A stretch of 64,000 nt of DNA from NCBI GenBank assembly GCA_025451045.1, contig JANWLD010000001.1, positions 407,468-471,467 of the forward strand. The letters run 5' to 3'. Position numbers and translations under genes: made by a program. Of this stretch, positions 3,152-63,715 are shown piece after piece. Below the pieces are notes generated by a model, which made no database searches, had not been told where the DNA came from, and worked only from the letters and a program-made list of their open reading frames with translations. The stretch is from Candidatus Saccharimonadales bacterium. GTDB taxonomy: Bacteria; Patescibacteriota; Saccharimonadia; Saccharimonadales; 2-12-FULL-41-12. Position 1 is the first letter of the stretch; the number at the start of each line of letters is the position of its first letter.

Positions 3152-4099
3152 GTGAATGAAAATGAAGTGCATGATGTGGTAACGATTGGCGCTGGTCCGA
3201 CGGCGTTGACCGCGGCTATTTATACTACCCGCGAAGATATCGAAACTTTGCTTTTAGACAAAGGTGCTATCGGCGGTTTGGCGGCTATAACCGATTGGGT
3301 GGACAATTATCCGGGCTTTCCGGAAGGCATTGCCGGCCTAGAGTTAGCCGATAGATTGCAAAAGCAAGCCGAACGATTCGGCGCGAAGATTGATTTTGCC
3401 GAAGTGAGTTCACTGGCCAAAAAAGGCAATGTAATAGAACTTGATACAACTGATGGCAAGATTGTCGCCAAAGCTGTGCTGATAGCTACCGGCAGTGACT
3501 ATAAACGCTTAGGGATCCCCGGCGAGGATGAATATTATGCCCGCGGCGTGCACTTCTGTGCTACCTGCGACGGGGCTTTTTATCGCGACAGAAAACTCGT
3601 AGTAGTAGGCGGAGGTAATTCGGCCGCCCAAGAAGCCGTTTTCCTTACCCGCTATGCCACGCATATAGACATGCTGGTCCGCGGCCCGAAGATGCGGGCA
3701 TCTGACGTACTGCAGAAAGAAGTTACCAAACATTCGGATAAGATTACAGTGCATTACAACACTTCGACAGATAAGATATTAGGCAAAGATTCCAAAGTCG
3801 TCGCTGTCGAAGGCACGGAAAATGCCAAAAAGAAAGTCACTTTTGAAACAGACGGGGTATTTATTTTTATCGGGCTGAAGCCGAACACCACGTTTTTAGC
3901 TGGCAGCGGCGTGGAGCTGGATGAGATAGGGCTAGTTAAAACGGACGAAGAGTTGCATACGAATGTAGCCGGAATCTTCTGTGCCGGTGATGTCAGATCC
4001 GGCGCGACTATGCAAATCGCCAGTGCCGCCGGCGAAGGCGCTACTGCGGCATTAAACATCCGCAAGTACCTCGAGGAATTGGAAAGAAACAACCCGTAG
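3152..4099 (+). CDS. trxB: thioredoxin-disulfide reductase
   Basis: GAGPTA FAD motif, CATC redox-active disulfide and GGGNSA NADPH motif. GTG start; an alternative in-frame GTG is at 3167. Confidence 0.9.
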   Translation: MNENEVHDVVTIGAGPTALTAAIYTTREDIETLLLDKGAIGGLAAITDWVDNYPGFPEGIAGLELADRLQKQAERFGAKIDFAEVSSLAKKGNVIELDTTDGKIVAKAVLIATGSDYKRLGIPGEDEYYARGVHFCATCDGAFYRDRKLVVVGGGNSAAQEAVFLTRYATHIDMLVRGPKMRASDVLQKEVTKHSDKITVHYNTSTDKILGKDSKVVAVEGTENAKKKVTFETDGVFIFIGLKPNTTFLAGSGVELDEIGLVKTDEELHTNVAGIFCAGDVRSGATMQIASAAGEGATAALNIRKYLEELERNNP

Positions 4100-7698: not shown

Positions 7699-8183
7699 GA
7701 ATAGCGCTTAGTACTGACCATGCAGGGTTTGAGCAGCTTAAACTGCTCAAAGAATTTTTAATATCCAAAGGCCATGAATCTGTGGATTTTGGACCAAAAG
7801 AATTTGACGCTGAAGACGATTACCCGGACTTTATTTTTCCTGCTGCCGAGGCCGTAGCTTCTGGTGAATGTGAAGCCGGGATTATCATGGGAGGTAGCGG
7901 ACAGGGCGAAGCGATGGCCGCTAACCGTATAAAAGGCGTGCGATGTATGGTTTATTACGGTCCGGCCAAAGCTGTGGGAGCCGTTGATGCTGACGGTAAA
8001 GAATCCGCTGATGAATATGAGATACTGCGACTTTCCAAACAGCACAATAATGCCAATATGATAAGTTTTGCCGCCCGTTTTGTATCCCAGCTTGAAATAG
8101 AAAAAGCCGTAGAAATCTGGTTGAATGAACAGTTCAGCGAAGTCGAACGCCATCAGCGCAGAATAGGAAAACTGGACAAATGA
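7695..8183 (+). CDS. rpiB: ribose-5-phosphate isomerase B
   Basis: RpiB/LacAB family N-terminus MRIALSTDHAGFE...GIIMGGSGQGEAMAANR. The GTG start overlaps the gap stop. Confidence 0.85.
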   Translation: MRIALSTDHAGFEQLKLLKEFLISKGHESVDFGPKEFDAEDDYPDFIFPAAEAVASGECEAGIIMGGSGQGEAMAANRIKGVRCMVYYGPAKAVGAVDADGKESADEYEILRLSKQHNNANMISFAARFVSQLEIEKAVEIWLNEQFSEVERHQRRIGKLDK

Positions 8184-8185
8184 GC

Positions 8186-8247
8186 CCCGTAGTGAGCCTC
8201 CTAGTTGCTTCGCAAAATAACCTAAGTTCTAGGAGGTCTACTACGGG
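8186..8247 (+). repeat. GTAGTGAGC-type palindromic element, copy 1 (MITE-like)
   Basis: Termini are CCCGTAGTGAGC ... GTCTACTACGGG. The 19-position stem has 16 Watson-Crick pairs, 2 G.U pairs and 1 A-C mismatch. Identical ATGAGC flanks it at 8180-8185 and 8248-8253. Confidence 0.75.
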
Positions 8248-8880
8248 ATGAGCATTGTTTGCCCGACAGTCCTGGCTACAACCGAAGAAGAATACAAGGA
8301 GCAGATGGATCGAATAGCGCCATTTGCCGCGCGAGTTCAGATAGACCTTATGGACGGTGATTTCGCCCAGCCTAAGTCAATTGATGTTGATAAAGTCTGG
8401 TGGCCGGAAGACGTAACAGCCGATATCCATATAATGTATCGCCGACCAGGGGAATATCTTGATACGCTTATTAAACTCAAACCAAGCTTGGTTATAATCC
8501 ATGCCGAAGCCGATGTAGACCACAAGTCATTTGCCGAAAAACTACATGTCGAAGCGATTTCTGCCGGTATTTGCCTGCTAGCCGATACGCCAATAAGCCA
8601 AATCAAAGATATTATTGATGAATTTGACCATGTATTGATCTTTGGCGGTACTTTGGGTAGCTTTGGCGGTAATGCCGATTTGGCCCAGCTGGAAAAGGCC
8701 CGTCAGGCCATAGAGCTGAAACCGACTCTTGAAATCGGTTGGGATGGCGGTGTTAACGACCAAATTGCCAAACAGTTGTCGGACGGTGGAATCGACGTGC
8801 TCAACGCAGGCGGTTTTATCCAAAAAGCCGAAGACCCCAAAGCCGCCTACGAAAAGCTATTGCAACTCATTGAACAATAA
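8248..8880 (+). CDS. ribulose-phosphate 3-epimerase family protein (divergent)
   Basis: Pattern PTVL...QIDLMDGDF...DIHIMY...VIIHAEA parallels Rpe PSIL...HvDvMDGhF...DvHLM...H.E. The first metal-binding His is replaced by Gln. Confidence 0.6.
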   Translation: MSIVCPTVLATTEEEYKEQMDRIAPFAARVQIDLMDGDFAQPKSIDVDKVWWPEDVTADIHIMYRRPGEYLDTLIKLKPSLVIIHAEADVDHKSFAEKLHVEAISAGICLLADTPISQIKDIIDEFDHVLIFGGTLGSFGGNADLAQLEKARQAIELKPTLEIGWDGGVNDQIAKQLSDGGIDVLNAGGFIQKAEDPKAAYEKLLQLIEQ

Positions 8881-18307: not shown

Positions 18308-18373
18308 TTCATTAACCTTTTTATTTAATAATTACTTAATCATAATGATATTGCTAAAACGAAGTGTTGTAAA

Positions 18374-18450
18374 CCCCGTAGTGAGCTTTCGAGACCGCCA
18401 CTTTGTGGCGCTTCGCTTCTTGAGCGAACAACTCGAAAGTCTACTACGGG
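18374..18450 (+). repeat. GTAGTGAGC-type palindromic element, copy 2
   Basis: CCCCGTAGTGAGCTTTCGAG ... CTCGAAAGTCTACTACGGG with two internal mini-hairpins. Flanked by GTAAA on both sides. Confidence 0.75.
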
Positions 18451-18663
18451 GTAAAGATAGATTATTAAGCTGTATCTTTGGTATACTTTTAACACTATAT
18501 GGCAAAAAGAACTCATCTGAACGCACTTTTTTATTTGCGAAACAATTATCTGACGCGAATAGCCAGCGTGTCAGGTGAAAAAGGCGTGTTAAGTAACACG
18601 CCGCTGAACAGCATATGCTGGATAACGTGTCAGAAATTGATGCAGCAGAAAGAGGTTGTTTAG

Positions 18664-18957
18664 ATGAGTTCTCTGACTAGAGAAGATGTCTTAAAATTGG
18701 CTCAATTATCTAAAATAAAGCTTACTGACGAAGAAATTGATAAGTTTGTCAGCGAGCTGGATGCCATAGTCAAGTATGTAAAGCAGATTGACTCGGTTGA
18801 TGTAAGCGGGCTTCGGCCCACTGACCAAGTTACCGGACTTACTAATGTCATGCGGCCGGATGAAAAAATTGATTACGCTACATCACCGAAAGAGCTTTTG
18901 AAAAACGCTCCGGCACTGGAAAAAGACCAGATTAAAGTGAAGAGAATACTTAATTAG
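18664..18957 (+). CDS. gatC: Asp/Glu-tRNA amidotransferase subunit C
   Basis: 97-aa GatC-like sequence directly upstream of gatA. SD AGAAAGAGG. Confidence 0.9.
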   Translation: MSSLTREDVLKLAQLSKIKLTDEEIDKFVSELDAIVKYVKQIDSVDVSGLRPTDQVTGLTNVMRPDEKIDYATSPKELLKNAPALEKDQIKVKRILN

Positions 18958-61860: not shown

Positions 61861-61940
61861 TCCATTTACAATAAAATCCTTACGCTTGCAAACAGACTGT
61901 CTTGATGATATTGTCGGAAGAATTAAGGAGTAATTATTTA

Positions 61941-63374
61941 ATGGCAGATTTAAACCCTGGTGAAGTTTTAGAACGTTTTAGAGAAGATTTGGACAGAGTA
62001 CACCAGGTCGAAGATAGTTGCGGCACAATCGAAGCGGATGCGCTAAATGCTGCTAGTGCTGCTTCCGAATTTGCTGAAAGTGCTAAAAGTATAATGGATA
62101 GCGCTACGAGAGATACGGAATCCGTTGTAAAACCGGCATTAGCAGCTATAGAAGAAGCTGCTGGCCGAAATCCCAGTAGCGATGAAGCGATAAGGGCTAT
62201 CATGTCCGTCAAAGGCAAGACAGATGAAGAGATAGAAGCCCATTTTGAGCATTTCGAGGCAACCAGTGAAGAAGAACAGCCGGTAATCGTCATAGGCGGC
62301 AGCGAGAAAGGACTTGGACTTGAAGGACTAATATCAGTTACTTATGGGCGCACAGCTACCAAAAACGAAATCAGATCTTTTCTCAAGACCTATACGGGTC
62401 ACGGAACGCATGTTGATAGCAGGAAAAGGGGGCTAGGGGAGCGTTATATTGGTATACTGGCGAAATCCCAAAGGGCATTCTCAGTCAGTACATCAGATGA
62501 GTATCCTATTGATTTATTTGCGGATCAACCAACTGCTGAGAGATTTTCTTTGATTTCAGCAAATTCTAATATGGCTGCCCATCCTTTTGAAGAGATACAT
62601 TTTGCTGGAAATGCGGTAGAGGTCAGAGATATGACTGAATCAATAGTAGGCGCTTATAGGAAACCGTCTGTAGCGGATGCTATGGCAGTCCAAAGTCTTG
62701 GCCTTCCAACCATGGTGGCATATGGAGAAGATGCCGTTTTAGAACTTTCGGCAAGAATAGGCGAAACAAATCCTCAGAGCAGAATTCTTGCCAGACGATG
62801 CATAGAAGGACTTGGCATAGACATGGAATATATTGCCGATGAGTTACCTGATGAAGACATTCCTAATCTATCTGAAAAGATAGTTTCAGACTTTGGTAAC
62901 CATTTGTTCGTAAAGTTTGACGAAGCTTTAACCGAGTTTTTGCGCCATGGCGGAACTCCCGCTGCTGATCATATTAGAACGTTGGCTTTTTTGGCTCCTA
63001 TGCAAAAGGCGATAGGTTATGCGCCGCCTACTGTACTTGATAAAATGGTTGGAGAATTGTCATCTCAAATAAACGTGAACTATTCTTTTGTAGAAGGTGT
63101 AGAAGTGACGGTTGCGGCAGTTAAGCCTTTGTCACCAACTGAAGCATCGGAGACTAAGTCAGTAAAAAGTGAATTGGAAAAGTTAATGGATAGAATGGAA
63201 GAATTAGGTATAGCCTATGTCCCTAAAGATGGCCTTGATATGGAAATGTTAGCAAGAAGGGTAGAAAGACCAGCAGTAAGAAAAGAGCTGGCAAATACAT
63301 CAAAAATACACTTTGCGAAAAGAGATGATCTTAAGGTATGTGTACGAGCCTTAACTCAAGAAGACCAAAATTAA
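61941..63374 (+). CDS. hypothetical acidic protein (477 aa)
   Basis: Start moved to ATG 61941 (SD AAGGAG at 61925-61930). No P-loop or other recognisable motif. Confidence 0.6.
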   Translation: MADLNPGEVLERFREDLDRVHQVEDSCGTIEADALNAASAASEFAESAKSIMDSATRDTESVVKPALAAIEEAAGRNPSSDEAIRAIMSVKGKTDEEIEAHFEHFEATSEEEQPVIVIGGSEKGLGLEGLISVTYGRTATKNEIRSFLKTYTGHGTHVDSRKRGLGERYIGILAKSQRAFSVSTSDEYPIDLFADQPTAERFSLISANSNMAAHPFEEIHFAGNAVEVRDMTESIVGAYRKPSVADAMAVQSLGLPTMVAYGEDAVLELSARIGETNPQSRILARRCIEGLGIDMEYIADELPDEDIPNLSEKIVSDFGNHLFVKFDEALTEFLRHGGTPAADHIRTLAFLAPMQKAIGYAPPTVLDKMVGELSSQINVNYSFVEGVEVTVAAVKPLSPTEASETKSVKSELEKLMDRMEELGIAYVPKDGLDMEMLARRVERPAVRKELANTSKIHFAKRDDLKVCVRALTQEDQN

Positions 63375-63527
63375 AGAATAATATTGAGACCTATGTTGCA
63401 ATGTAGTTGACACTTTGAATTTAGTGATATAAACTATAATTTAAGAAGTAGTGGTCGGCACTGTTGTATTGGCTCAAAATTTAAGACAATTTCACAACAC
63501 TGCACGCAGTAATCTTCGCGCGCTAAC

Positions 63528-63605
63528 CCTGTAGTGAGCTCTCTCTAGCATCGTACATAACGATGCATAATCTGCCAAAGGCAGATGAGAGAGATCTACT
63601 ACGGG
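63528..63605 (+). repeat. GTAGTGAGC-type palindromic element, copy 3
   Basis: CCTGTAGTGAGCTCTCTC ... GAGAGAGATCTACTACGGG with two internal hairpins. Flanked by GCTAAC at 63522-63527 and 63606-63611. Confidence 0.75.
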
Positions 63606-63715
63606 GCTAACAGATTAAACTAATGAAAAGCTAAAGCGTATTAAAGTACTGATACGTTTGCTAATTTTATAAAACATAAAATCTAAGTTCATAAGGGAGC
63701 AACACTACAAGTTCT

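Follow-up and report, generated by a model that had tools for sequence, protein, structure and literature searches.

A dispersed family of short foldback elements in Patescibacteria has the features of a non-autonomous DNA transposon

The Correia elements of Neisseria, bcr1 of the Bacillus cereus group and the Rickettsia palindromic elements are bacterial miniature inverted-repeat transposable elements (MITEs) with conserved folds, and their insertion sites carry short duplications such as TA (Correia) and TTTAT (bcr1). The genomes of Patescibacteria (candidate phyla radiation, CPR) are tiny and, in most descriptions, contain little mobile DNA. Here we analyze a family of short foldback elements from this group, starting from a 64,000-nt stretch of a Candidatus Saccharimonadales bacterium genome (contig JANWLD010000001.1, positions 407,468 to 471,467; hereafter the window, with positions counted from its first base). 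The window is Saccharimonadales housekeeping DNA, with uvrB, gatCA, rpiB, rpe, gap and a tRNA-Leu gene, and its genes lie almost all on the + strand. It contains three + strand copies of the element, which a first-pass annotation had described both as a mobile element and as a selected RNA structure. Our results bear out the mobile element but not the selected RNA, and we conclude that the elements are probably non-autonomous DNA transposons of the foldback type, broadly speaking MITEs, and form an undescribed Patescibacteria family, or superfamily with several end variants.

The three window copies occupy positions 8185-8248, 18374-18451 and 63527-63606 and have, as described previously, the same termini: CCCCGTAGTGAGC on the left and (G/A)TCTACTACGGGG, also written TCTACTACGGG, on the right. 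The 78-nt copy upstream of gatC (18374-18451, +), the sequence of which is as first reported, consists of a left terminal inverted repeat (CCCCGTAGTGAGC, 18374-18386), a variable stem extension whose 5' arm TTTCGAG (18387-18393) pairs with CTCGAAA at 18432-18438, and a right terminal inverted repeat (GTCTACTACGGGG, 18439-18451) with an additional T that has no counterpart in the left end and forms the bulge. In the minimum-free-energy structure, the 5' arm, followed by an A, leads into two internal hairpins (18396-18410 and 18412-18428), so that terminal stem, extension and hairpins together make a three-way junction. This copy is flanked by the direct repeat TAAA at 18370-18373 and 18452-18455; the GTAAA noted earlier on both sides is present at 18369-18373 and 18451-18455, with the second occurrence overlapping the last G of the element. 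The 64-nt copy at 8185-8248 (+) interrupts the ATGA in which the rpiB stop codon and the rpe start codon overlap. The final A of this copy is the A of the rpe start codon, and the copy is flanked by the target-site duplication TGAG at 8181-8184, which includes the rpiB stop codon TGA, and at 8249-8252 (alternatively parsed as ATGAG at 8180-8184 and 8248-8252). The third copy (63527-63606, +, 80 nt) has the left end CCCTGTAGTGAGC and is flanked by the target-site duplication CTAA at 63523-63526 and 63607-63610.

By our calculation, ~0.08 matches to a 13-mer at up to one mismatch would be expected in 128,000 positions, compared to the three seen, and all three left ends are matched by a right terminus 39-55 nt downstream. 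When up to three mismatches were allowed, the window contained 10 matches against 9.1 expected; as this is no excess, we consider only the three copies to be real, and a covariance model run over the window found no further copy (score of the 18374 copy, 65.9 bits). Each copy extends the terminal stem with complementary pairs of its own and two of them contain two internal hairpins, as had been proposed. Their predicted RNA folds have free energies of -33, -44.9 and -45 kcal/mol and z-scores of -6.4, -8.4 and -9.8 relative to shuffled sequences (18374 copy: -44.9 kcal/mol, z = -8.4). The first-pass annotation also held that no sequence is shared beyond the ends. This is correct for the window copies, none of whose interiors is 75% or more identical to that of any other copy, but it does not extend to the family as a whole, which has a weak interior consensus and includes interiors that are 76-86% identical at different sites.

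Evidence that the element has inserted comes from syntenic relatives (L048, L050/L051) in which RpiB and Rpe are 75-87% identical to those of the window and gene order is the same. At the rpiB/rpe junction, L048, L050 and L051 have the empty site GACAAATGAGCG with the usual ATGA stop/start overlap, whereas the window reads GACAAATGAG-element-TGAGCATT; through the TGAG duplication, both the stop and the start codon are rebuilt. Upstream of gatC, a single TTGTAAAG in L048, L049 and L050 corresponds to TTGTAAA-element-TAAAG in the window. At the rpiB/rpe junction of L049 we found a member of another subfamily (TCCCGTTAGAGC...GCTCTAACGGGA) with the same TGAG duplication, at the exact ATGAG site that the 8185 copy occupies in the window, indicating that this site was colonized independently; other sites likewise hold unrelated family members in different lineages. 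We did not find an empty site for the third window copy, the adjoining protein of which has no homologues. This 490-aa open reading frame (ORF), at 61902-63374 directly upstream of the copy, contains no Pfam domain, and its sole match among 5.8 billion proteins is itself.

To define the family, we scanned one genome per species with an exact pattern and obtained 47 loci, ~35 of which are in Saccharibacteria/Patescibacteria assemblies and fold as the window copies do. A metagenome scan with the family pattern yielded 91 further loci, with 65 of 89 matches being structured, and the pooled set comprises 114 structured copies at 96 distinct sites, nearly all in Saccharibacteria/Patescibacteria assemblies. 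Several metagenome-assembled genomes contain 3-4 loci each, and the window has three copies in 64 kb. Scanning viral contigs with the same pattern gave no matches. Pattern matches outside Patescibacteria and Bacteroidota (Vibrio, Variovorax, Lachnospiraceae and others) were rejected, as they do not fold and are at chance level; uniform-composition arithmetic allows for tens of them.

Copies of the main GTAGTGAGC family are ~60-85 nt long and have 13-nt imperfect terminal inverted repeats; subfamily members reach 173 nt, and no ORF fits within them. A looser search recovered sister subfamilies that differ sub-terminally (GTAGTGAAA, GTTAGAGC, GTGAAAT and GTCAGAA). All subfamilies have in common only the terminal YCCYGT...ACRGGR and the same 4-bp flanking duplication, as would be expected of a transposon superfamily. 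Family members are thus non-coding, under 300 bp, dispersed and bounded by terminal inverted repeats, with duplications and corresponding empty sites, which are the features by which MITEs are recognized. The suggestion that this is not a described family holds as far as it can be tested: Rfam returned no match at gathering score (best E-value 0.059, 25 bits against a 43-bit threshold), and a full-text literature search returned nothing relevant on the terminal sequences or on MITEs, palindromes or transposases of Saccharibacteria.

Of the 96 sites, 49 carry an exact direct repeat immediately next to the element (4 bp at 40 sites, 5 bp at 9), compared to 3.4 expected when left and right flanks of different copies are paired; in the first copy set the figure was 19 of 35, with ~2 expected. 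Among the sites that lack an exact repeat, several have a one-mismatch repeat, are nested in another copy or are located in RNase P RNA genes. The commonest duplications are TTGA, seen at 10 sites, and TCAA, the reverse complement of TTGA, seen at 7 (with TCAAA at one more), and either end of the element may face the asymmetric target TTGAC, with promoter-adjacent copies presenting the right end 12 times and the left end 9 times. As both TTGA and TCAA are common and either end can face the promoter, we conclude that insertion is independent of orientation and occurs into duplex DNA. Interiors that are 76-86% identical are found at different sites with different duplications (L008 vs L039, and L026 vs L039 within one genome), demonstrating that the repeated bases derive from the target and are not carried by the element. 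This excludes a mechanism of the IS200/IS605 type, which uses a fixed tetranucleotide and an internal guide and makes no duplication. An IS608-like guide model with an element-borne tetramer was rejected on the same ground, and the variable terminal positions and stem extension do not track the duplication. Together with the empty sites and the dispersal across many genomes, these duplications strongly support the mobility of the element.

The palindromic structure of the element is maintained across the family. In the set of 35 copies, 98% of the cells in the terminal stem plus 7-bp extension are paired, compared to 87% after shuffling of partners. We counted 61 double-sided changes against 15.1 in the shuffles, and none of 500 shuffles reached 61; the stems covary strongly. 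Sliding the partners lowered pairing to 41-48%. The seven extension pairs have 2-12 double-sided changes apiece, and at extension positions 1-4 the pyrimidine is always on the 5' arm and the purine on the 3' arm. Interiors folded alone, after trimming 20 nt per end, have a mean z-score of -3.4, with 74% below -2, and the two internal hairpins of the three-way junction are present in 69 of 93 copies scored. These inner hairpins gave no reliable MAFFT alignment; in the paralogous pair L008/L039, hairpin 2 contains a swap from C-G to G-C.

The recurring G.U, A-C, G.U wobbles that were originally reported are better explained by a single base by which the left end (GTAGT-GA) consistently differs from the right end (TC-T-ACTAC); RNAalifold models this difference as two Watson-Crick pairs plus a bulged T. 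The GTAGTGAAA subfamily shares this bulged T, and the GTTAGAGC subfamily lacks it. The + strand is indeed more stable, by ~2.4 kcal/mol on average and in 29 of 35 copies, but this advantage is due only to the fixed terminal asymmetry, as the interior alone contributes just -0.46 kcal/mol. Of ~1,715 interior pairs, 82 are G.U on the + strand and 81 on the - strand (31 vs 25 in the first set), and ~95% are Watson-Crick. In tandem gene contexts the element is in sense orientation 19 times and antisense 20 times; the uniform sense orientation in the window was therefore a small-sample effect of a stretch rich in + strand genes. Equal use of both orientations relative to transcription, which the first-pass annotation had named as an outcome that would count against its reading, is what we find in the family. 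This pattern matches a palindrome maintained in both strands of the DNA and not an RNA.

Copies located inside RNase P RNA genes provide a further view of strand neutrality. The element replaces helix P12 of the bacterial RNase P RNA in sense orientation at L015:243-638 and L031:4425-4862 and in antisense orientation at L023:2073-2518 and L038:1544-1968, and L123 has an antisense P12 copy as well, judged by the identity of its flanks. The element-bearing loci have Rfam scores for RNase P RNA of 260-266 bits, and no flanking duplication is present at the P12 sites. A long self-contained hairpin is harmless at P12 whichever strand is transcribed.

Many insertions lie precisely at promoter edges. 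At 21 of the 96 sites, the first base outside the element is also the first base of a -35 hexamer that belongs to a complete, outward-facing promoter of the sigma-70 type (TTGACA-like hexamer, 16-18 nt, TAnnnT), compared to 0-3 promoters at each of 29 other offsets tested, and at 11 more sites a hexamer with at least 5/6 matches to TATAAT begins at the first outside base, in some cases 6-9 nt before an ATG. The gatC-proximal window copy is an example: a scan identified the minus-strand promoter-like site TTTACA-17-TATCAT (18345-18373, 10/12 matches) directed toward the ORF at 18307-17225. Its TTTACA hexamer (18373-18368, with TATCAT at 18350-18345) abuts the 18374 copy, and the first four bases of this hexamer are the duplicated target. 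The empty sites of the relatives already hold the TTTACA hexamer. Across the family, the preferred targets are T-rich tetramers (TTGA(C), TTTA(C), TATAA, CTTG and CTAA), mostly at the upstream edges of -35 or -10 hexamers. The simplest reading of this placement is a preference for T-rich tetramers combined with loss of harmful insertions. Within genomes this compact, the TTGAC and TATAA sites that tolerate an insertion are promoter edges. With the hexamer, or a stop/start overlap, rebuilt by the duplication on the side of the gene, these insertions can be tolerated and kept. As a separate observation, copies with the 5-bp duplication TATAA (L109:3927-3999 and its flanks; L091; L120) retain an intact TATAAT 6-9 nt upstream of the ATG, in the arrangement of a leaderless-type promoter, and any -35 element there has been pushed away by the full length of the element.

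If the family is a non-autonomous transposon, a transposase would act on it in trans through staggered cuts of 4-5 bp; the most likely candidate is a DDE cut-and-paste enzyme, with piggyBac/IS1380-type ends as the closest formal match; IS1380 elements have CC ends and 4-5 bp duplications (ISfinder). The foldback of terminal stem and two hairpins would then be kept by selection for transposition competence and not for a function of the transcript, plausibly because a duplex of 80 bp is too stiff to join its ends unless it is folded back. For a mobilizing partner, we searched unpaired termini and scored pairs of ends 200-5000 bp apart by end complementarity and duplication. The best pairs were rejected as autonomous elements, as they proved to be separate small elements around prfB and a hydrolase gene (L019) and around ligA (L117), and an all-against-all BLAST of the loci revealed no common repeat resembling an insertion sequence (IS).

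Several points weigh against this interpretation. Across ~860 kb of DNA around the copies, we found no transposase gene bounded by two family ends, so that the DDE assignment is based on the duplication and the end sequences; a Pfam scan of 16 window ORFs (six flanking copies, eight on the minus strand and two further on the + strand) likewise revealed no transposase. The constancy of GTAGTGAGC/TCTACTAC in the copy set is imposed by the search pattern, so that the invariance of the ends is partly built in. The conserved bulged T, the GTAG motif, the near-perfect foldback and the combination of diverged interiors with intact ends are more typical of substrates of enzymes that act on single strands. 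Finally, orthologous copies are conserved better than their flanks, which could mean a function at the level of the host.

These points are best considered with the other explanations of the family. A structured RNA in the + strand transcript, acting through its three-way junction as a small RNA, processing site or stabilizer, would predict the strong covariation and stable folds and the more stable + strand, and the copies in RNase P RNA are certainly transcribed. However, the element lacks an orientation bias, its interior G.U pairs are equally rare on both strands (~5% of pairs), the + strand advantage stems from the terminal asymmetry, P12 tolerates both orientations and Rfam has no match. 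We regard this reading, and with it the earlier proposal of a selected RNA structure, as close to refuted and very unlikely, even though the covariation itself is real. Two specific RNA candidates were also rejected: an intrinsic terminator, as no T run follows the stem (flanks TAAAGATAG, TGAGCATT and CTAACAGA) and a terminator scan omitted the element, and a hammerhead or other ribozyme core, as the junction strands are 1-3 nt long and not conserved and Rfam returned nothing. A DNA element co-opted by the host at promoters, in which the inverted repeat or a cruciform serves as operator, insulator or supercoil-sensitive switch, would account for the abutting promoters, for the occupation of one site by unrelated family members in different lineages and for the conservation of orthologous copies, whose changes are concentrated in loops, above that of flanking intergenic DNA. 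Yet many copies are away from promoters (at an operon junction, inside RNase P RNA and at gene 3' ends), the promoter may be faced by either end, and relatives without the element have the same promoter. As a preference for TTGA and TATAA with removal of harmful insertions suffices without any function, we consider exaptation improbable.

A REPIN-like element, moved by a domesticated Y1 (HUH) transposase that cuts or joins a folded single strand at GTAG and the bulged T, deserves more weight but is still unlikely in our estimation. We identified an intact gene for a Y1_Tnp protein (PF01797, with HUH and Tyr motifs) at L106:7124-7753 (-), 3 kb from a copy, whose product has 6771 homologues at E ≤ 1e-10; the homologues listed are 54-81% identical, and those with a named source are from Saccharibacteria/Patescibacteria. 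In six of six loci, this gene has the same position, between ruvA and ruvC on the opposite strand, apparently in single copy and flanked by hairpins (other loci: L144-L146:10001-10615, L147:3740-4354 and L148:800-1414), which is the behavior of a gene for a REP-associated tyrosine transposase (RAYT; REP, repetitive extragenic palindromic). The gene looks like one for a domesticated HUH transposase, and the family itself has GTAG, a hairpin with a conserved bulge, no autonomous IS with its ends, and ~30-nt hairpins with the same head in tandem arrays resembling REP clusters. On the other side, the hairpins that flank the Y1 gene (TTCCAAG...CTTGGAA) are unrelated to the family and were found nowhere else in the DNA examined; they vary between genomes yet match on both sides of the gene. 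In L144-L148, we found no copy of the family at a distance of up to 10 kb from the Y1 gene. Known Y1 elements insert strand-specifically beside a fixed tetranucleotide and make no duplication, whereas the duplications of the family are variable, target-derived and independent of orientation, and there is no bias relative to gene direction, taken as a proxy for replication direction. The Y1 gene is therefore a possible but poorly fitting partner of the family. Somewhat more doubtful still is the idea that the hairpins are processed by a type of enzyme for which no connection with target duplications has yet been made, such as the universally conserved Y1/HUH protein of Saccharibacteria or an unknown junction-cutting enzyme acting on the extruded foldback, and that their placement at the upstream edges of -35 and -10 hexamers reflects targeting of promoter DNA, for instance when it is bound by RNA polymerase or melted, and not just a preference for certain sequences. 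We return to a non-autonomous foldback transposon as the probable identity of the family.

Other arrangements of the family were recovered in the course of this analysis. A sister subfamily with perfect ends (TCCCGTTAGAG...CTCTAACGGGA) is represented at L049:5363-5437, which is the copy at the rpiB/rpe junction, and at L004:2497-2571 and L034:1368-1488, and a CCCCGTGAAAT...ATTTCACGGGG subfamily has copies at L117:1675-1770 and 3858-3951, on either side of ligA. The short hairpins (~30-42 nt) have the head CCTGTAGTGAGC...GCTCTACTACAGG and the same bulged T and form tandem arrays with 4-7 nt spacers at L072:12374-12600 (the same as L016:1-151 and L107), L030:4630-4758 and L040:2114-2190. Their hosts are two Bacteroidota and one Patescibacteria assembly, the Bacteroidota arrays being located after a 2-oxoglutarate oxidoreductase gene in Chitinophagales and beside a tRNA gene in Robiginitalea. 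In composite copies (L011:2289-2397, L024:1186-1292 and L042:30-138), a full inverted element lies directly within the two ends of another, and the target duplication surrounds the outer pair only (TATG in L024). One Patescibacteria assembly from groundwater (L018:7598-7926, L019:1-310 and 1915-2060, L034:720-1040 and L047:6590-6905) contains closely packed, A+T-rich members of 130-165 nt (TCCTGTAGTGAAA...TTTCTACTACGGGA) in head-to-tail order, every one of them with TTCA on its flanks.

The window also contains a second, unrelated hairpin near the gatC-proximal copy. This near-perfect hairpin of 165 nt (18508-18672; arms AGAACTCATCT.../...AGATGAGTTCT; -77 kcal/mol) interrupts gatC directly behind its third codon, where relatives read ATGGCAAAAATAACCCGC (MAKITR). 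As a result, the old start of the window gatC now opens a 54-codon ORF, and the 3' arm of the insertion provides a new ATG at 18664 (MSSLTR). No further copies of this hairpin were found in the window or the other loci examined.

A widespread family of 60-85 bp transposons would mean that transposition is ongoing or long-lasting in Patescibacteria and would provide a marker of strain-level variation. It also explains why some RNase P RNAs have an extended P12 helix and why some stop/start overlaps are split. The placement of copies at hexamer edges is a natural experiment on the insertions that a minimal genome tolerates and, if it is enzymatic, would follow a rule of targeting not described before. 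Finally, the family illustrates cleanly that strong covariation need not mean a functional RNA, a practical warning for pipelines that discover RNA motifs.

Compared to described systems, the family resembles the Correia, bcr1 and Rickettsia elements in being small, non-coding and dispersed, with terminal inverted repeats, short duplications and hairpin potential, near or within genes. Unlike those elements, which have shared interiors, its copies share ~13 nt per end and keep the shape but not the sequence of the interior; it also differs in its target at promoter-hexamer edges, in having no known partner IS and in its Patescibacteria host. The integron attC site and the inverted terminal repeat (ITR) of the parvovirus adeno-associated virus (AAV) are structural analogies only. 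The AAV ITR, a T-shaped terminal hairpin, has a long stem with two small internal palindromes, but the family is not located at genome ends. attC has conserved ends, a variable covarying stem and extrahelical bases; as an identity for the element it was rejected, because the ends are CCCCGTAG/CTACGGGG, there is no RYYYAAC/GTTRRRY core, and copies are dispersed singly and not in cassette arrays. To our knowledge, neither of these two yields variable 4-bp duplications. With REP/REPIN-RAYT systems the family shares the GTAG motif, the bulged imperfect hairpin, tandem arrays of short hairpins and a single-copy Y1 gene in the clade, but its GTAG is inside the stem, the Y1 gene is beside another hairpin, the duplications are variable and both orientations occur. 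piggyBac ends start with CCC, and these transposons duplicate TTAA, with the rare variants TAAA, CTAA and TCAA; IS1380 is their prokaryotic outgroup (PMC10813416). The CCC...GGG ends of our family, its 13-bp repeat and its T/A-rich duplications of 4-5 bp, which include TAAA, CTAA and TCAA, are similar, and if excision were as precise as that of piggyBac, this would account for empty sites being clean and for sites being occupied more than once. In contrast to piggyBac, the target is not TTAA, the repeats are unrelated beyond CCC and no such transposase is present in the window ORFs scanned, so what the sequences suggest is a resemblance to piggyBac/IS1380 and not membership.

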